Shown here one piece after another: positions 5,962-12,935 of a stretch of DNA of 13,137 nt. This stretch comes from Candidatus Fraserbacteria bacterium (GTDB taxonomy: Bacteria; Bipolaricaulota; Bipolaricaulia; RBG-16-55-9). A model generated the notes under the pieces. That model was not told where the DNA came from. It saw only the letters and a program-made list of their open reading frames with translations, and did no database searches. The position numbers and the translations under genes are program-made. Where the stretch lies: assembly GCA_037442925.1 (NCBI GenBank), contig JBBIPG010000063.1, positions 1 through 13,137 of the forward strand. The letters are read 5' to 3'. Numbering within the stretch: the first letter of the stretch is position 1; each line of letters begins with the position of its first letter.

Positions 5962-7155
5962 GTGAAGATCCTCTATTTGGATTGTTTTTCCGGCATCAGC
6001 GGCGATATGTTCCTCGCGGCGTGTTTGGACGCTGGCATCATCAAAGAGAGTCTCCTAGAGAGAAAGCTGTCAACCCTGAGTCTTGGAAAAGTAAAGATTA
6101 TCACCCGAAGAGTCAAGCGCAACTCCATCGCGGTCACACGCATCTCGTTTCAAACCGCACGCCGCAAGAAAGCGCCAGAGCATAGGAGCTTCCGCAATAT
6201 TCGCCAGCTGATCGCAAAGAGCGATCTCACGGCCGACGAACAACAACGCTCCATCGCCATCTTTCACAGCTTGGCCAAAGCCGAAGCCAAGATTCACAAT
6301 ACGTCCCTCCACAAAGTGCACTTTCACGAACTGGGTGCAGTGGACTCCATCCTAGACATCGTCGGCGCAGCCGTCGTGATAGAGCATAGTGGCATAACGA
6401 GATCTTTCGTCTCGAAGATCAACCTGGGATCGGGTTTCATCAAGACAGAACATGGCCCGCTCCCCGTGCCTGCCCCGGCCACACTGGAGCTTTTGAAGGG
6501 ATTGCCCGTTTACTCGTCCGGCATCGAAGCGGAACTCGTCACACCGACCGGAGCGGCCATCGTAAAGCATCTCGCACCCGAGTGTGGGCTTCCCCCCGCT
6601 CGCTGGGAGACCATCGGCTACGGCGCCGGAACCCGCGATCTCAAAGAACAGCCTAACGTGCTCCGCGTGCTCATTGGAGAGAGCATCCCGACCACTCAAA
6701 GCACAGCGCACGAAGAGGCTGTGGTCATCGAGACGGATATCGATGATATGAACCCACAGCTCCTCCCACACGTTCAGGAGTTACTCTTCCAGCAAGGAGC
6801 GCAGGACGTGAGTTGGCACTCGCTTCATATGAAGAAGAACCGTCCCGGTGTCCGGCTTTACGTGATGAGCCCGCCGGAACACGTTGATGCGCTCTGTGAG
6901 ACGGTCTTTCGTGAGACGACTACACTCGGAGTGCGGATCAACGCAGTAGAGAAGCGCAGGCTAGAGCGAAAGATGATGGAAGTAGAGATTCCGCAGGGCA
7001 GAGTCCGCGTCAAGGTAGGCCTCTGGCAGGAGCGCGTGATGAATTTGGCTCCGGAGTACGAAGATTGTGTACGATTGGCAAGACAGAGCAACGTGCCCGT
7101 AAAGGAGATCATGCGCCTCTCTCTAGAGAGCGCACATCGCAAGCTGAAACCATGA
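5962..7155 (+). CDS. larC: Nickel-pincer nucleotide cofactor nickel insertase LarC (DUF111)
   Basis: Motifs MKILYLDCFSGISGDM, LAKAEAKIH, VHFHELGAVDSILDIVG, HGPLPVPAPAT, ELVTPTGAA, GYGAG, ETDIDDMNP, MKKNRPG, ETTTLGVR and PEYEDC. Confidence 0.95.
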   Translation: MKILYLDCFSGISGDMFLAACLDAGIIKESLLERKLSTLSLGKVKIITRRVKRNSIAVTRISFQTARRKKAPEHRSFRNIRQLIAKSDLTADEQQRSIAIFHSLAKAEAKIHNTSLHKVHFHELGAVDSILDIVGAAVVIEHSGITRSFVSKINLGSGFIKTEHGPLPVPAPATLELLKGLPVYSSGIEAELVTPTGAAIVKHLAPECGLPPARWETIGYGAGTRDLKEQPNVLRVLIGESIPTTQSTAHEEAVVIETDIDDMNPQLLPHVQELLFQQGAQDVSWHSLHMKKNRPGVRLYVMSPPEHVDALCETVFRETTTLGVRINAVEKRRLERKMMEVEIPQGRVRVKVGLWQERVMNLAPEYEDCVRLARQSNVPVKEIMRLSLESAHRKLKP

Positions 7156-9269
7156 AGGGGACGAACACGGGACAACTAAGCCCGATCATCGCGCCCCGCT
7201 CCGTGGCCGTGATTGGTGCCTCCACACGGCCGGATTCGATCGGTCGAGCTGTCTTCGCCAACATCCTCTTCCACAGCTTTCAGGGGATCGTCTATCCCGT
7301 CAACCCCAAGGCTCACAGCATATTGGGGGTGCGAGCCTACCCTTCTGTACGGGAGATCCCTGATGAAGTGGATCTAGCTGTGATCGTTGTGCCTGCGGCG
7401 GGGGTGCCCCAAGTGCTGGAGGAGTGCGGGCACAAGGGCGTTCGAGGAGCCGTTGTGATCAGCGCGGGCTTCAAGGAGATCGGACCCGCAGGTGCCGCCC
7501 TGGAATCGCAACTCATAGAGATCGTGCGAAAGTACAAGATCTCGCTCATCGGACCAAACTGTCTGGGGATCATCAATACCGATCCGTCCGTCTCGTTGGA
7601 TGCCACATTCGCGCGAGTCATCCCGCGGGCCGGGAATATTGCCTTGGTCTCTCAGAGTGGGGCTGTAGGCGCCACGGCTCTAGAATACGCCCAGATGGAG
7701 GGCATTGGGCTCTCCAAGTTCATCTCGTTGGGCAACAAGGCCGATCTCAACGAGAATGATCTTTTGGCAGCGCTTCGAGAGGATCGAGAGAGCGATGTCA
7801 TCTTGCTCTATTTGGAAGACCTCGTAGACCCGAAAGGCTTTTTGGATCTCGCTCAGGAGATCACCGGCGAGAAACCGATCTTGGCGATCAAATCCGGCCG
7901 GACACGGGAGGGAGCCAAGGCCGCATCGTCGCACACGGGTGCCCTGGCAGGCTCCGATGAACTCTACGACTCGCTCTTCCTGCAAGCGGGTGTGCTCCGC
8001 GTGGAATCCCTGGAGGAACTATTCGAGTATGCTGTGGCCTTCGCGAATCAACCCACACCTCGGGGCAATCGAGTGGCCATCGTCACGAACGCGGGCGGTC
8101 CCGGTATCATGGCCACGGACGCCTGTGTGAGACACGGCTTGCAGCTGGCGGAGTTCAGCGAGAAGACCCAGCAGTCTCTAAGGCAAGGGCTGCCTGTTAC
8201 AGCCAGCGTCCACAACCCTGTGGATCTGATCGGAGATGCGAACGAGGATCGCTATGAGCTGGCGCTCCAAGCGGCACTCGCTGACGAAAACGTGGACGCC
8301 TGCTTGGTCATCTGCGGTCCTCGCGTCTTGTCGGATCAGAACGCCATCGCCCGTGTCGTCGCCAAGAGCGCCAGAGCTGAGAAACCGCTGCTGGCTTGCT
8401 TCATGGCCCTAGAAGAGATCGACGAGGTGTTCAACATCCTAGAAGAAGCGAAGGTCCCCAATTACCGCTTTCCCGAAGACGCAGCACGCGCGCTCGCCAA
8501 GATGGCTCAGTATGAGACTTGGGTTCATCGCCCTCGCACGCAGTTCAGAAGCTTCTCTGATATAGATCGTGCTCAGGCGAAGGCGATCACCTCACGCGCT
8601 CAGGCCGAGGGACGCCGATTCTTGCCGGAGCCCGAAGCCCATGCCCTCTTGAAGGCGTACGGCTTCCCGGTGCTGAAATCCCATCTGGTCAAGACAGAGG
8701 ACGAGGCAGCACAGTCAGCCAATGAAATCGGCTACCCCGTCGTCTTGAAGATCGTCTCACCGGACATCATTCATAAAGTAGACGTAGGAGGCGTCAAGCT
8801 AAACCTCCAAAGTGAAATACAAGTACGCCATGCCTACCGGGAGTTGATGTCGGCTGTGATATCTGTGCAGCCCCAGGCGAAGATCTGGGGAGCCTTCGTT
8901 CAGCAGCACATCTCGGGAGGGAAGGAGATCATCTTGGGCCTCAAGCGTGACCCGCATTTCGGTCCCCTCTTGATGTTTGGTCTGGGTGGCATCTATGTGG
9001 AAGTCCTCAAGGATGTGACGATGCGCATTGCGCCCATTCGTGCGCTAGGGGCTTACCGCATGATCGAGCAGATTCGTGGCTACAAGATCCTCGCGGGATA
9101 CCGCGGTGAGCCCCCCTCGGACATTGACGCGATGGCAGAGTGTTTGCTGAGGCTCTCGCAGCTCTCGCAAGAAGTCGACGAGATCGAGGAACTGGACATC
9201 AACCCGCTGATCGTGTTTACCAAGGGTGAGGGAGCCCGGGTCGTGGATGCCAGAATACTCTTAAAATAA
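7152..9269 (+). CDS. ADP-forming acetate/acyl-CoA ligase, fused alpha-beta (CoA-binding plus ATP-grasp)
   Basis: PRSVAVIGAS, GPNCLG, SQSGA, SLGNKADL, AASSHTGALAG (phospho-His), TNAGGPG and NPVDL, then an ATP-grasp region with GYPVVLKIVSPDIIHKVDVGGV, FGPLLMFGLGG and ELDINPL. There is no GNAT tail. The likely start is ATG 7152 (ATGA overlap with larC), not 7065. Confidence 0.93.
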   Translation: MKGTNTGQLSPIIAPRSVAVIGASTRPDSIGRAVFANILFHSFQGIVYPVNPKAHSILGVRAYPSVREIPDEVDLAVIVVPAAGVPQVLEECGHKGVRGAVVISAGFKEIGPAGAALESQLIEIVRKYKISLIGPNCLGIINTDPSVSLDATFARVIPRAGNIALVSQSGAVGATALEYAQMEGIGLSKFISLGNKADLNENDLLAALREDRESDVILLYLEDLVDPKGFLDLAQEITGEKPILAIKSGRTREGAKAASSHTGALAGSDELYDSLFLQAGVLRVESLEELFEYAVAFANQPTPRGNRVAIVTNAGGPGIMATDACVRHGLQLAEFSEKTQQSLRQGLPVTASVHNPVDLIGDANEDRYELALQAALADENVDACLVICGPRVLSDQNAIARVVAKSARAEKPLLACFMALEEIDEVFNILEEAKVPNYRFPEDAARALAKMAQYETWVHRPRTQFRSFSDIDRAQAKAITSRAQAEGRRFLPEPEAHALLKAYGFPVLKSHLVKTEDEAAQSANEIGYPVVLKIVSPDIIHKVDVGGVKLNLQSEIQVRHAYRELMSAVISVQPQAKIWGAFVQQHISGGKEIILGLKRDPHFGPLLMFGLGGIYVEVLKDVTMRIAPIRALGAYRMIEQIRGYKILAGYRGEPPSDIDAMAECLLRLSQLSQEVDEIEELDINPLIVFTKGEGARVVDARILLK

Positions 9270-9283
9270 GAGAGAAAGCTCTG

Positions 9284-9312
9284 TTGCTTTCATCGAATAC
9301 TTGTGGTATAAC
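9284..9312 (+). promoter_or_regulatory. sigma70-type promoter with extended -10, probably giving a leaderless transcript
   Basis: TTGCTT (9284-9289), 17 nt, TATAAC (9307-9312), with TG at 9304-9305. ATG 9321 is only 8 nt downstream and has no SD. Confidence 0.72.
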
Positions 9313-9320
9313 GGCCTTCA

Positions 9321-9677
9321 ATGTTCGCAAGATTTGCGCGCCATGCAATCATTTTGCTGATCATCGTCGCCCTGGATGCAAGCGCGGTCGCTGTAACGTG
9401 CTTGCATCGCTGGCACCTACATGAGTCTTCCGCAGCCTCCGAAGATGGCCACAGCAGCTCGCATCATCACGATACTACTGACCATGACTGTCACCTCCTT
9501 CATAATAGCTATGCTTCCCCAGTTCTTCTAATCCCTGGCAGCTGTGATCAAGCCACGACTGCTACAGACATTCTCCCGGAATTCCAATTGCTCACTTCGC
9601 TTCGCGCAACCTCTCACACCTTCTCGCTACAGCCTTACCACCCTCCTCCCCTCAAACCCCCGAAACTCCTTTCCTAG
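9321..9677 (+). CDS. Putative exported His/Cys-rich leader (arrest-type) peptide, DUF2946-like architecture
   Basis: Signal-peptide-like N-terminus (MFARFARHAIILLIIVALDASAVA). Ten His plus C27 and C57 fall in residues 27-61. The C-terminus is YHPPPLKPPKLLS. It is the first ORF after the promoter and directly upstream of the copC-like genes. Confidence 0.7.
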   Translation: MFARFARHAIILLIIVALDASAVAVTCLHRWHLHESSAASEDGHSSSHHHDTTDHDCHLLHNSYASPVLLIPGSCDQATTATDILPEFQLLTSLRATSHTFSLQPYHPPPLKPPKLLS

Positions 9678-9715
9678 GCCTCGCTATACCCAAAACAGCA
9701 GATCTTTGAAAGGAG
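9666..9715 (+). promoter_or_regulatory. Anti-SD/SD hairpin sequestering the ribosome-binding site of the first copC-like gene
   Basis: CTCCTTTC (9666-9673) is the exact reverse complement of GAAAGGAG (9708-9715). Further inner pairs are 9676-78/9703-05, 9680-81/9700-01 and 9683-85/9697-99. Confidence 0.65.
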
Positions 9716-9724
9716 CTGGTGAAG

Positions 9725-10111
9725 ATGAAGAAAGTGAGTTTGGGTCTGTCTATCGTACTAACAGCCATCGGGTTGGGGCTACTCTTCGTAGGAGCAGCCT
9801 TCGGACATCCACGGGTCGAGACCTCAAACATCGCCGACGGGGCAGTTTTCAATCTCACACAAGTCCCAGGTCAGATCACCCTGACGTTCAACGAGGAGAT
9901 CGATCCCAAACGAAGTGTTGTCTACGTCGTCCGGCTTCAGGGACGCCGGATCGTGGACAACGGCAATCTCTTCATTGAGGAGAATCAGATGACGATCGGA
10001 GTCAATGCGCTCGATGAAGGAGTCTACCAGATCCGCTGGATTGCCGTCACCCCAGATGACGCCGGCTTTAGTGAAGGAACGATCACCTTTGCCGTGCACT
10101 TCGACTCGTAA
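9725..10111 (+). CDS. copC: CopC-like periplasmic/exported copper-binding protein (atypical, no DGH histidine)
   Basis: The signal peptide ends AFG|H, followed by HPRVETSNIADGAV, ITLTFNEEI and L.EGVYQIRWIAVTPDDAGFSEGTITFAV. ATG 9725 is 9 nt after AAGGAG. Confidence 0.85.
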   Translation: MKKVSLGLSIVLTAIGLGLLFVGAAFGHPRVETSNIADGAVFNLTQVPGQITLTFNEEIDPKRSVVYVVRLQGRRIVDNGNLFIEENQMTIGVNALDEGVYQIRWIAVTPDDAGFSEGTITFAVHFDS

Positions 10112-10132
10112 GCTACGCCTATGGAGGTTGCT

Positions 10133-10549
10133 ATGCAACGAAGAACGCAAGCTAGACTGACACAAGGGCTGACGCTGCTCCTAGCGGTTGTGGGAATGCT
10201 GTTCTTGATCGCGAGTGGAAGCGCAGCTCATCCTAACCTACGGGCGAACGAGTCCAGCCCTAGTCCAGGGGCCCTGCTAAACTCCTCACCCGCTAGAGTG
10301 CAGCTGGTCTTCAGCGTGGAGTCTCAGGGACTTGTCCCAGAACAGAGCTTCTTCTGGGTCATCAAGGAAAGTGGGCTGAGTGTGGTTGCCTTGGGCCAAG
10401 TCGATCTCAGCGTTGCCGATCGCAATGTCATGGCTGTAACGCTACCCCACCTGGACCCGGGCGTCTATCGAGTCAAATGGGTCGCGGTATCTTTCAGTGA
10501 TCAAGGCTTCAGCGAAGGCAGCTTCAGCTTTGCGGTCGCGGGCCAGTAA
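10133..10549 (+). CDS. copC: Second CopC-like exported protein (atypical, no DGH histidine)
   Basis: The signal peptide ends SAA|H, followed by SSPSPGALLNSSPARVQLVFS and LDPGVYRVKWVAVSFSDQGFSEGSFSFAV. GGAGG at 10123-10127 precedes ATG 10133. Confidence 0.83.
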   Translation: MQRRTQARLTQGLTLLLAVVGMLFLIASGSAAHPNLRANESSPSPGALLNSSPARVQLVFSVESQGLVPEQSFFWVIKESGLSVVALGQVDLSVADRNVMAVTLPHLDPGVYRVKWVAVSFSDQGFSEGSFSFAVAGQ

Positions 10550-10562
10550 GAAAGACGAGCTA

Positions 10563-10593
10563 CAGGGGAGACAGGCATCGCTTGTCTCCCCTG
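10563..10593 (+). other. Strong intergenic stem-loop (possible attenuator, processing/stability element or RBS occluder)
   Basis: CAGGGGAGACA (10563-10573) pairs perfectly with TGTCTCCCCTG (10583-10593) over 11 bp. Inner GU/GC/CG pairs could extend it. No long U-run follows. Confidence 0.7.
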
Positions 10594-10605
10594 CGTTCTG
10601 ACGTT

Positions 10606-12297
10606 ATGAACAGAGTGCTTACCGGCTTATTGCTCATCGCGGCCACCACGTGGCTCTCGGCCTCGACAGCTTTGGCTCATGCGTATCTTGTCAAGTCGGA
10701 GCCGCCGATCGGAGCCGTACTGGCGGCTCCACCGGAGCAGCTCCAACTCAGCTACAGCGAGGCGATTGAACCCAAATTCAGTCACTTCCGACTCTATGAT
10801 GCCCAAGGCAACAGAATCCTCGAACTACCCGCACAGCTGGAGCAAGATGGGCTACAAGCTGTTCTGAGCTTGAGCCCTGTGCCACCGGGTGTTTACACAC
10901 TGAGCTGGCAAGTGCTCTCAGCCGTGGATGGACACCTCACACAGGGGACGATCCCGTTTGCCGTGGGCGTGGATGCCGCTTTGTCATCGTCCATTGGGCA
11001 GGCTACCCAAACCACTTCTGCACCGCCGCTGGGGAGGCTGTTCACCCGCTGGGTAGGATTCTTGGCTACCATGATCCTGGTAGGAAGCCTCTTCTTCCCC
11101 CTGTTGCTTCCTGCCAAGAACGGGATTCCTCAAGAGAACCTCAAGGCAAGAAATCTGCTCCGGATCAGCTGGGGTGTGTTCGTTCTTGCTGGGGTGGCAG
11201 ATGTTCTCTTGCAAGCGCAGAGGCTGGGAACTTCTCTCATGGAAATACTAATGCAGAGCCGCTGGGGTAGCATGCAGCTGGCCAAAGCGAGTTTCGCCTT
11301 GGCTTTAGGGATCACGCTCTGCAACAGTGTGGAAGGCAGGTTCAACCTCTGGTTGGCAAGGTGCTTTTCCGCTCTCTTCCTACTCGCTTCTTCCATGTCG
11401 GGCCATAGCGCCGTGTTGGGACCCATGGGTGTGGCAGCCGACTGGGTTCACCAGCTGACCGTCGCCCTTTGGCTGGGAGGCCTGACGCAACTGGCCCTCA
11501 TTTGGTTCCCCCGAAGGCTACACCGATCTCCAGAGCAGCGGGCTACCTTGCTGAGCGAGCTTGTGTCCCGGTTCTCAAATCTAGCGCTCGTGAGCGTACT
11601 GTTGCTGCTGGGGAGCGGACTCTATGTGGCTTTACGCCAAGTTCCCTCATGGGGCGCGCTCACCTCCACCCTCTACGGTCAAGCCCTGCTCGCCAAACAC
11701 CTCTTGTTGCTTCCAGTCTTAGCGCTGGCAGCCATCAATCGCTGGCTGCTGAAACCCAGAATGATCGCTCGTGTTGCTCTTGTCTCCACCAACCCAGATC
11801 CGGTGAAGAGTGTCGAGAATACAGAGAACACGCTTTCGCATCTTCACAAGCTCATTGCTACAGAAGTGCTGGTTCTTGGAGTAATCGTCCTCTTCGCTGG
11901 TGTTCTGACGCTGACTGCACCGCCTCTCGGAGGTGCCGCTTCTGCGTTGCAGACGCCTCTGGAGCAACCACAGCTCTTCATTCAACCGCTGGGCCAGATC
12001 ACAGTCGCCCTGAGCGTGAGCCCGGTGCGCGTCGGCAAGAACGTCTTCGAGATCGCGGTGACAGATTCGAGCGGAAAGCCCGTCGAGGACATCTTGAAAG
12101 TCTGGATCGATTTTGTTTATCTCGATCAGCCGTTGGGATCGACTACAGCGGTGGCTCAACCGACCGGGGAAGGTCGATACCGCGTGGAGGGGGTTCTCAT
12201 GAGTCTACCTGGCAATTGGCATGTTACCGTCTCGGTCCGCCTCAAAGATAGAATCGATGACTTGAAGGCAGAGGTTCACCTCGTTGTGGAAAGATGA
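10606..12297 (+). CDS. CopC-CopD fusion copper uptake/resistance protein with a C-terminal YtkA/FixH-like domain (YcnJ-like)
   Basis: CopC domain: ALA|HAYLVKSEP...YSEAIE...GVYTLSWQVLSAVDGHLTQG. Multi-TM CopD region: GHSA, ADWVHQLTVALWLGGL, RFS, YGQALLAKH. Beta-rich C-terminal domain: P.RVGKNVFEI...G.Y......LPGNW.V.V. The start is ATG 10606 or TTG 10582. Confidence 0.92.
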   Translation: MNRVLTGLLLIAATTWLSASTALAHAYLVKSEPPIGAVLAAPPEQLQLSYSEAIEPKFSHFRLYDAQGNRILELPAQLEQDGLQAVLSLSPVPPGVYTLSWQVLSAVDGHLTQGTIPFAVGVDAALSSSIGQATQTTSAPPLGRLFTRWVGFLATMILVGSLFFPLLLPAKNGIPQENLKARNLLRISWGVFVLAGVADVLLQAQRLGTSLMEILMQSRWGSMQLAKASFALALGITLCNSVEGRFNLWLARCFSALFLLASSMSGHSAVLGPMGVAADWVHQLTVALWLGGLTQLALIWFPRRLHRSPEQRATLLSELVSRFSNLALVSVLLLLGSGLYVALRQVPSWGALTSTLYGQALLAKHLLLLPVLALAAINRWLLKPRMIARVALVSTNPDPVKSVENTENTLSHLHKLIATEVLVLGVIVLFAGVLTLTAPPLGGAASALQTPLEQPQLFIQPLGQITVALSVSPVRVGKNVFEIAVTDSSGKPVEDILKVWIDFVYLDQPLGSTTAVAQPTGEGRYRVEGVLMSLPGNWHVTVSVRLKDRIDDLKAEVHLVVER

Positions 12298-12344
12298 TAA
12301 GATGAGTGAGAGGGTCAAGTAACGGAGGGGGAGGTACGAAGCAC

Positions 12345-12935
12345 GTGAACAAACGCACTCTTCTCGTTCTGTTTGGCATTGCCACACTCATGCTCGTTGC
12401 CCCATCAGCATGGGCACACTACAGCATTTCCCGACGTGTCGAAAACTGGAACATCACGTTGTCTGTCATTGCCGTCCACTCTCTCGAACACGACGAGGAC
12501 GAAGGGGATACTGCCATCCGCGTGGGAGAACATGAGTTTGAGCTGAATGTACTGGACATCAGCCGCGGGTACCAGCCGGTCGACAACGCACAAATCCGGC
12601 TTCTCTTCCGGATGCCTGATCGCGACATGAGTGAACAATCGATCATCACAGACCCGCAAGGCCAAGGCAGTTACGTCGCGCGGGGGTCTTATCTCACTAT
12701 GGCCGGCCGCTGGCAGCTCGTCGCGGAGTTGAGCCTGACAGATCACGCTGAGCCCGTGCGCGCCGAGTTTGAACTCACCGTTGAGGAACCTTTGCCTGCG
12801 CGAGTGCCCTCTGGCCCACTCGGCCTCGGCCAGTCGAATACGCTCATACTGACAGTGGTCGGTCTAGTTTTGGCGTTGATTGTACTAACACTCGCCGCGT
12901 TTCGATGGAAGCGACAGAGGAGTAAGGAGGCATGA
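12345..12935 (+). CDS. Exported YtkA/FixH-like Ig-fold protein with a C-terminal membrane anchor
   Basis: GTG 12345 follows GGAGGT (12330-12335). The signal peptide ends AWA|H. It contains PVDNAQI.L.F.MPD.DM...G.G.Y.A.G..LTMAGRWQL and ends in a TM helix plus basic tail (RWKRQRSKEA). Confidence 0.78.
   Translation: MNKRTLLVLFGIATLMLVAPSAWAHYSISRRVENWNITLSVIAVHSLEHDEDEGDTAIRVGEHEFELNVLDISRGYQPVDNAQIRLLFRMPDRDMSEQSIITDPQGQGSYVARGSYLTMAGRWQLVAELSLTDHAEPVRAEFELTVEEPLPARVPSGPLGLGQSNTLILTVVGLVLALIVLTLAAFRWKRQRSKEA

Follow-up and report, generated by a model that had tools for sequence, protein, structure and literature searches.

In the genome of a Candidatus Fraserbacteria bacterium, a member of the phylum Bipolaricaulota (Candidatus Acetothermia), a 13,137-nucleotide (nt) stretch of contig JBBIPG010000063.1 (assembly GCA_037442925.1; the whole stretch is referred to below as the window) carries an open reading frame (ORF) of 118 codons at the head of a copper operon. 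This leader ORF lies on the + strand, runs from an ATG at 9321 to a TAG at 9675–9677, and is followed 47 nt past its end by the start of copC (ATG 9725). We propose that it probably encodes a metal-sensing arrest leader of the CutF/CruR kind, which would gate a YcnJ-like copper-acquisition operon. Arrest leaders that sense copper are understood so far from two Proteobacteria only, where they differ in the sign of the response, in the compartment in which copper is sensed and in the output, and the principle itself is already known from these two systems. What is new here is an unnamed family in the Bipolaricaulota/Acetothermia with a two-cysteine layout, a "ruler" of 53–58 residues and a YcnJ-type cargo, set apart from the clusters of CutF-like proteins in PMC9973294 by the description given there and not by protein lists. 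The family would represent an independent, very divergent version of such leaders, with its own ligand layout and an equally strict Cys–Pro distance.

The predicted product begins with MFARFARH, followed by AIILLIIVALDASAVAVT. Its first 26 codons contain R4 and R7 and then 19 residues free of Lys and Arg that run up to Cys27, among them one Asp (D19) and the sequence A20-S21-A22. The initial annotation of this DNA had singled out, in an ORF of 118 amino acids (aa), a set of potential metal ligands (C27, H29, H32, H34, H44, H48–50, H55, C57, H58 and H61, within a total of 13 His and 3 Cys), a tail of P108-P109-P110-L-K-P113-P114 that is followed by K-L-L-S and the stop codon, and copper genes downstream, all of which are present. 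In the AlphaFold2 model (predicted template modelling score, pTM, 0.32) a helix spans residues 2–40, with a predicted local distance difference test score (pLDDT) of 86–97 over residues 1–30, and residues 41–100 are without secondary structure at a pLDDT of 50–58. Since the model contains the N-terminal helix only and nothing folded after residue 40, a leader peptide fits better than a stable domain.

Searched alone, the window ORF matched no Pfam or NCBIfam family and nothing at E ≤ 1 in a database of 5.8 billion clusters, and against the genomes of 41 relatives it gave matches at noise level (E ≥ 8.9e-4), two weak ones being the syntenic ORFs just upstream of copC. For each copCD homologue in these relatives the preceding DNA was taken and scanned from stop to stop, and a similarly built ORF was found upstream of copC...copCD in 12 of the 14 related genomes that have this cluster, the window's own genome included; in a thirteenth (G006) the part of the locus that was covered shows the tail of the ORF. 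A profile of 12 sequences (alignment A1) retrieved 12 proteins from the 5.8-billion-cluster database, without a Pfam domain and named at most "hypothetical protein", and 24 representatives at E ≤ 1e-3 from 1.84 billion proteins, 6 of them at E ≤ 1e-10. Ten database members of the family that were looked up are all singleton clusters without names or accessions. A larger alignment (A2) comprises 34 sequences with a mean column identity of 27%; it leaves out P0003, P0005 and L034, which nearly duplicate the P0002 group (the frame of L034, in addition, runs on), P0012 as a near-duplicate of P0011, the fragments P0029 and P0030, L038, P0034, which has no C-terminal match, and P0035, a protein of 1684 aa with a low-complexity match.

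When 184 genomes of the phylum were scanned with A2, matches were obtained in 15. The 12 strong ones (E ≤ 1.2e-18) share the strand of copCD without exception, start 0.9–2.2 kilobases upstream of it and come from three families of the window's order, and two further matches (E 3.3e-8 and 2.2e-7) are paralogues. Two marginal matches, one of them with three stops, were disregarded. Gene context is known for the loci in the phylum's genomes, and 20-odd members of the family are database proteins only. A search of metagenome contigs with the window ORF returned two loci, both spurious matches inside unrelated genes, and the CopCD protein used as a query against genome contigs gave 96 pattern matches, none of which was confirmed.

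Four residues, C27, C57, P113 and P114 in the numbering of the window, are invariant in all 34 sequences of A2, and M1 and H49 are nearly so. A comparison proposed with the initial annotation bore out the expected conservation ahead of orthologous copC clusters, in the form of an invariant Pro-Pro, invariant Cys and a fixed Cys–Pro spacing. In 32 of the 34 members a Lys or Arg is followed by 13–26 residues (median 19) without either, a segment that ends at the first invariant Cys. This Cys opens a CxxH in 23 members, the second is directly followed by His in 16, and the loop between them is rich in His and varies in such a way that C27 and C57 are 27–57 residues apart. The His-rich/CxxxH ligand set described in the initial annotation is present as residues, but the constraint falls on Cys27 and Cys57, H49 alone being nearly invariant among the His. 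From C57 to the Pro-Pro the distance is 53–58 residues (median 56) in 34 of 34 members, with other segments varying by up to 30. In the window C57 and P113 are 55 residues apart, which corrects the length of the low-complexity spacer, put at about 50 residues before. A third Cys region takes the form CxxC in 10 members, CxC in 5 and a single Cys in 7, and 12 have none; where a further Cys or CxxC/CxC exists (22/34), its end stands 34–38 residues ahead of the Pro-Pro.

The tail follows a pattern of its own: Arg or Lys directly precedes the Pro-Pro in 24 of the 34 members, an additional PP stands two residues upstream of it in 16, and 2–5 residues and then the stop come after it in 29. Member P0011 ends in LAPPEGPPRLV, close to the tail of CutF. 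A strict ligand, a strict distance, a Pro-Pro near the stop and drift elsewhere make up a pattern typical of such leaders, and the same pattern of constraint is the hallmark reported for CruR (PMC9426467). The leader ORFs are conserved at the protein level among sequences that are 64–89% identical in nucleotides, and the ratio of nonsynonymous to synonymous substitution rates (dN/dS) is 0.31–0.63 in five close pairs. Because of the profile matches, the invariant residues and these ratios, the leader ORF is taken to be a real gene and, on the evidence of sequence, is a protein-coding gene under moderate purifying selection. As a separate observation, the leader frame of L034 (genome G027) stays open for 28 codons after the Pro-Pro and reaches into the start of copC; P0003, near-identical to this leader, ends at RPPIF, and the run-on frame is either a lineage indel or an assembly error.

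The end of the leader is also linked to the next gene at the RNA level. Within its last codons, CUCCUUUC forms with the copC Shine-Dalgarno (SD) sequence, GAAAGGAG, a perfect helix of 8 base pairs (bp) that is present in both the minimum free energy (MFE) and the centroid structures, and the probability that the GGAG at copC is unpaired is 0.001. Counted from the first base of the Pro114 codon (9660–9662), this anti-SD occupies +6 to +13, inside the footprint of a ribosome paused there, and in a model with a ribosome on the Pro-Pro codons (pairing forbidden) the accessibility of the copC SD rises from 0.00 to 0.31. As controls, 640 starts of the form GGAG-N5-10-ATG were taken from this genome, each belonging to an ORF of 150 aa or more; the GGAG is covered by a perfect helix of 8 bp or longer within 60 nt upstream at 3 of them, and a probability of an unpaired GGAG of ≤ 0.01 was found at 44. 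Of the 11 orthologous loci, 5 have a strong anti-SD no more than 24 nt from the first Pro codon (the window, L031, L035, L036 and L037), with duplex energies (dG) of −13.5 to −17.2 kcal/mol. The last four, at −13.6 to −17.2, use different sequences, and none of the windows from the body of their upstream ORF (uORF), of which 104–120 were tested per locus, pairs as well. At L035–L037 the anti-SD directly follows the Pro-Pro codons and the stop is 10–11 codons further on; there the SD is opened only by a modelled ribosome on the Pro-Pro (0.14–0.35) and not by one at the stop codon (0.00–0.04). In the paralogous leaders L077 and L074, too, the codons after the Pro-Pro pair in MFE folds with the SD of the gene that follows.

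In the mechanism that we propose, the leader product would be exported while still on its ribosome, its N-terminal hydrophobic segment inserting N-in/C-out through SecYEG. With the ribosome at Pro113-Pro114, some 56 residues would span the ribosomal tunnel and the translocon; Cys27 would be at the outer face of the membrane, the His-rich loop outside and Cys57 just leaving the channel. Copper held between the two Cys, with neighbouring His, would alter the duration of the pause. A paused ribosome would cover 9666–9673 and leave the copC SD free, and copC and the following genes would be translated; behind a ribosome that runs through, the helix would reform. The pause would thus be the on state of the operon. 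As to the direction of the response, we would lean modestly towards copper shortening the pause and switching the uptake operon off, as in CruR, over copper prolonging the pause and switching it on, as in CutF. The CruR-like sign is favoured because the cargo is YcnJ-like and CtaK/YtkA-like, the genome has two COX1 (heme-copper oxidase) genes, and the paralogues head a P19-type metal-uptake gene; the short spacer and the SD helix, on the other hand, are CutF-like, and in CutF copper switches on.

A more specific version, which we consider possible and put forward only tentatively, is a two-cysteine "molecular ruler" in which Cys57 would exit SecYEG just as the ribosome reaches the pause site, with Cys27 kept at the outer face of the membrane by the signal anchor. 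Copper bridging the two would fold the His-rich loop at the channel exit, the resulting pull would release the pause, and extracytoplasmic copper would shut the uptake operon with no DNA-binding regulator. If this is true, copper perception would consist in force-generating, metal-induced folding on a nascent chain, a logic different both from CutF, where copper blocks release, and from CruR, with its cytoplasmic sensing and Rho. A ruler of 53–58 residues, compared with 45 in CruR, would offer a handle on the metal-sensing site along the path from tunnel to translocon.

The leader shares much with CutF of Rhodobacter capsulatus (cutFOG; a DUF2946 protein according to its authors). Both are the small first gene of a copper operon, both have a Sec-type or signal-like N-terminus and Cys ligands in the (predicted) exported part, and both end in a Pro-rich tail near the stop, PEPEGPPPRL in CutF, PPEGPPRLV in the family and PPPLKPPKLLS in the window. 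CutF, like the window, has a short spacer and a stem-loop over the next SD, and its pause is the on state, as proposed here. The CutF peptide is reported to escape detection in vivo or to be broken down quickly. Published accounts give CutF a Sec signal, a CxxxC, the C-terminal P109EPEGPPPRL118, a stem-loop shielding the cutO SD and a stalling that depends on elongation factor P, EF-P (PMC9973294; bioRxiv 10.1101/2025.02.05.636593); EF-P is present in the genome studied here. In size, prolines and neighbouring gene the window ORF agrees with the filter described for CutF-like proteins (Ozturk et al. 2023, PMC9973294), with its 118 aa, P113-P114 and copC 47 nt downstream on the same strand. The two differ in their ligands, since by arithmetic on the 90-aa mature part the CxxxC of CutF lies about 40 residues ahead of the PPP, whereas the present family has two single Cys at the larger distances given above. 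They also differ in their target, a multicopper oxidase for CutF and here, in a different phylum and known from sequence alone, a YcnJ-like CopC/CopCD operon of uptake type. That study sorts CutF-like proteins into 29 clusters, some with His-only motifs, in which few members belong to Chloroflexota and Spirochaetota (PMC9973294), and entries for CopC, PF04234 or Chloroflexota were not found in three of its text supplements.

CruR of Bordetella pertussis (Bp2923, the prototype of PF11162) likewise stands as a uORF at the head of an operon for copper uptake, and in it, too, an invariant Cys motif keeps a conserved distance to a Pro-Pro close to the end. Its pause, too, is the on state, and with an uptake target copper is expected to switch the operon off. 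According to PMC9426467 it has a CXXC, a conserved spacing of 45 residues and a RAPP three residues from the end. CruR differs in its 162-nt spacer, in Rho-dependent termination and in a regulation independent of signal peptide and EF-P; in the window the motif is KPP, the gap is 55 residues, the spacer measures 47 nt and a helix masks the SD. CopC/CopD had at first been regarded as a novel target for a leader of this type, a claim that has to be given up, CopC and YcnI being listed already in DUF2946-headed operons (PMC9426467).

Farther removed are SecM, MifM, VemP and ApdA/ApdP, in which, as proposed here, an exported or inserted nascent chain arrests the ribosome and an SD-masking structure opens. 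Their arrest is released by a pulling force on the nascent chain, and they differ in monitoring the export machinery and not a metal; their arrest motifs are given as RAGP or RAPP (PMC10951233), compared with (R/K)PP and an upstream PP here. The same type of cargo, a CopC-CopD-YtkA importer serving heme-copper oxidases, is controlled by YcnK/CsoR in ycnKJI of Bacillus subtilis, where the regulators are DNA-binding repressors (PMC8424229). The copper operon described here has a leader peptide at its head and, in the annotation of the window, no YcnK/CsoR-type or other regulator gene adjoining it. Regulation of YcnJ-type importers is otherwise known only via repressors, and within the limited literature searched no such leader was found for Bipolaricaulota/Acetothermia or ahead of a YcnJ-type gene. 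The leader ORFs are unannotated or called "hypothetical", and copC/copCD operons in such genomes are therefore read without their proposed regulator.

A second line of comparison concerns DUF2946 itself, since the ORF had been taken for a divergent leader of the DUF2946/CruR/CutF type; the layout is upheld, and the kinship with DUF2946 is at best remote. Sub-threshold matches to PF11162 occur in 3 of the 34 members (best E 0.02), and DUF2946 is the only family matched by more than one of them. The same order does contain a true DUF2946 protein (genome G024, L042 1477–1848; 24.4 bits against a cut-off of 23.7), and the positive control of this order, P0036, scores 24.4 bits against PF11162. A protein 98% identical to the one in L042 is named "DUF2946 family protein [Candidatus Acetothermia bacterium]". 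In a comparison with this single G024 protein, hhalign gave A2 a probability of 7% and an E-value of 0.005 over the C-terminal 55 columns, and the A2 hidden Markov model (HMM) scored 8.4 bits, equalled by 3 of 2000 shuffles, in a collinear alignment of hydrophobic segment, first Cys with xxH, second Cys, CxxC and KPP. The hhalign result and the collinear HMM alignment suggest a distant kinship short of membership; the leader family is probably distantly akin to DUF2946 and not a demonstrable member of PF11162. The window ORF lacks the CXXC of DUF2946; one lone Cys, C75, aligns with it. Its tail reads K-P-P compared with R-A-P-P in DUF2946, the Pro-Pro close to the end being kept, and the DUF2946 spacing of about 45 residues between Cys and Pro (within 1–2 residues) is not found in the family when measured from C57. 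The L042 protein heads two DUF1573 proteins with CxC motifs, not a classical copper gene, and has the tail STKPPTFHS. The paralogous leaders L077 1501–1938 (G003) and L074 1483–1911 (G007), with scores of 35.5 and 32.9 bits, follow genes for ABC-type metal transporters; the genes that they head encode a Fe2+ transport protein of the P19 type (PF10634) and a DUF7405 protein with a Tat signal.

Several observations weigh against an arrest leader that masks the SD of the next gene. In G017, a genome 70% complete, copC-copCD comes directly after an ABC transporter, with no leader ORF. The pairing in the window is ordinary by energy, its −13.5 kcal/mol being reached at 106 of the 640 control starts; the 111-nt segment folds no better than shuffled sequences (z −0.91; 42 of 200 shuffles as good); and in the window the zone after the Pro-Pro has a shuffle p of 0.042, with 5 of 104 uORF-body windows pairing equally well. 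Codons for Pro and Ser are inherently anti-SD-like, and K-P-P-K is not known to be a strong stall context. The PF11162 HMM found no match in the window ORF even at E ≤ 10 (gathering score 23.7 bits), and in six-frame scans of the 41 relatives (E ≤ 10) and the 184 genomes (E ≤ 0.001) it never matched the ORFs upstream of copC. For CutF, the proline motif alone was no strong staller in a LepB fusion, as reported in PMC9973294. Finally, at 6 of the 11 orthologous loci the 24 nt that begin with the Pro-Pro codons contain no anti-SD of note. The masking of the downstream SD is seen in the window and falls short as a general rule: the proposed switch is recurrent, since five orthologous loci make it from different sequences, yet not universal, since the other six are without it, which agrees with the view of the CutF authors on CutF-like proteins in general (PMC9973294). 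The initial interpretation as a whole is partly supported.

The two invariant Cys and the many His are plausible Cu ligands in another setting as well, that of a stable, membrane-anchored or secreted small protein that would act as a copper chaperone or buffer and pass copper to CopC/CopCD, the Pro-Pro being structural or used for docking. All downstream proteins are of extracytoplasmic copper-handling type, and the nearest language-model neighbours of the leader ORF include clusters auto-named "Cobalt transporter" and CzcI-like, a lead only. We consider such a protein unlikely, given that the AlphaFold2 model shows no fold past the N-terminal helix, that the strictest constraints are on a Pro-Pro 2–5 codons from the stop and on the Cys–Pro distance while the sequence between drifts, and that the last codons pair with the next SD at five orthologous loci and in both paralogues.

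The six loci without an anti-SD would suit a transcriptional route of the kind for which CruR provides the precedent (PMC9426467), in which the paused ribosome would keep Rho or an attenuator from acting between the ORF and copC, with no role for the SD helix. One of these loci, in G014, has a leader–copC spacer of 182 nt in which, by eye, a hairpin and U-run come soon after the stop. The spacer of the window is 47 nt long and has no terminator-like hairpin and U-run on the + strand, and an 8-bp SD helix is rare among the starts of this genome (3/640), which makes the transcriptional route rather improbable here. The hairpin and U-rich run in G014 (L040) are located 15–45 nt past the leader stop, and this may be an attenuator variant in place of the SD helix.

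The start of the leader bears on whether it is translated at all. A promoter-like pair ends 8 nt ahead of the ATG; a consensus promoter scan missed it, as the scan demands T at the last −10 position, and the sole result of that scan, an internal CTGACC/CATAAT pair at 9478–9506, is regarded as chance. By eye, a −35/−10-like pair with a spacer of 16–18 nt ends 6–25 nt ahead of the start in 11 of 12 family loci; for most of the leader ORFs (window 9284–9321 and loci L029–L041) the distance is 6–15 nt and an SD is absent. No obvious SD precedes the leader ATG in the window; the leaders of G015, G027 and G028 have a 25-nt 5' leader with AGGAGG instead. Because a gap of 8 nt leaves no room for an SD, the mRNA would be leaderless or near-leaderless with the ORF as its first cistron, and translation of the leader peptide would be initiated accordingly. 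That the ORF is untranslated, as a non-coding leader RNA or a chance frame, could draw on the absent SD and on an annotation that offers nothing beyond "hypothetical protein", and is very hard to credit against the conservation of protein at 64–89% nucleotide identity with dN/dS below 1, the invariant residues and fixed spacings in 34 sequences, a promoter-like pair at the ATG that fits leaderless initiation, and an Rfam search at E ≤ 10 with three chance-level matches only and no family.

Table 1. Positions in the window of the leader ORF, its control elements and the copper genes that follow
Feature	Position	Strand	Remarks
Promoter-like pair: TTGCTT (9284–9289), 17 nt, TGnTATAAC (−10 hexamer 9307–9312)	9284..9312	+	Read by eye
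Leader ORF	9321..9677	+	118 codons and TAG; member of the unnamed family, probably CutF/CruR-like
Export-signal-like or signal-anchor-like N-terminus, codons 1–26	9321..9398	+	From charge and hydrophobicity only
Cys/His cluster, codons 27–61	9399..9503	+	Cys27 (9399–9401) and Cys57 (9489–9491) flank a His-rich loop of variable length
Spacer of fixed length, codons 58–112	9492..9656	+	Poorly conserved; contains semi-conserved C75 and P108–P110
Pro113-Pro114 (CCC CCG)	9657..9662	+	Proposed pause site; invariant; four sense codons ahead of the stop
Anti-SD, CUCCUUUC	9666..9673	+	Within codons L116-L117-S118
Leader–copC spacer, 47 nt	9678..9724	+	Loop of the helix; no Rfam match
copC SD, GAAAGGAG	9708..9715	+	GGAG at 9712–9715; 9 nt ahead of ATG 9725; pairs with 9666–9673
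copC-1	9725..10111	+	PF04234, E 8.1e-12; predicted mature N-terminus starts with His
copC-2	10121..10549	+	PF04234, E 1.7e-10
CopC-CopD fusion with YtkA-like C-terminal domain	10582..12297	+	PF04234, E 1.4e-19; PF05425, E 6.8e-20
YtkA-like protein with C-terminal membrane anchor	12306..12935	+	PF13115, E 1.4e-7

The genes that follow the leader are listed in Table 1. In the fusion protein, CopC (residues 33–128) and CopD (327–442) both score above the cut-offs and a match to FixH is weak; its last 90 residues (480–570) are homologous to the YtkA-like domain of the next gene, and on account of this match the fusion has the CopC-CopD-YtkA order of B. subtilis YcnJ. YcnJ is described as importing copper for heme-copper oxidases under copper starvation (PMC13344008). 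The genome also has two genes of the CsoR family, away from the operon. Both stand-alone CopCs have D-x-G-F where the CopC domain of the fusion has an invariant D116-G117-H118, as is also the case in G005, and the free CopCs may therefore be without one canonical Cu(II) ligand. The CopCD of G005 (L014 1423–3471) is extended at its C-terminus by a cytochrome c-like part with the haem-binding motif CxxCH. In G014 (L007 2079–3188), a long acidic repeat rich in His and Glu forms the end of CopC, and the next gene has a CxxCH motif.

The genes upstream of the leader, larC and that for an ADP-forming acetyl-CoA synthetase ending at 9269, are unrelated to the copper operon. In its longest frame, from TTG 7065, the synthetase gene shares 91 nt (7065–7155) with the end of larC, and the true start is probably further downstream. 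At 1724–2355, two genes, one of the ribbon-helix-helix (PF12651) and one of the Fic/DOC (PF02661) type, overlap by 4 nt and are likely a toxin-antitoxin pair of the Phd/Doc type. This pair lies inside a polysaccharide-synthesis cluster (Bac_transf, a PglD-like acetyltransferase, a DegT aminotransferase and Polysacc_synt_2).

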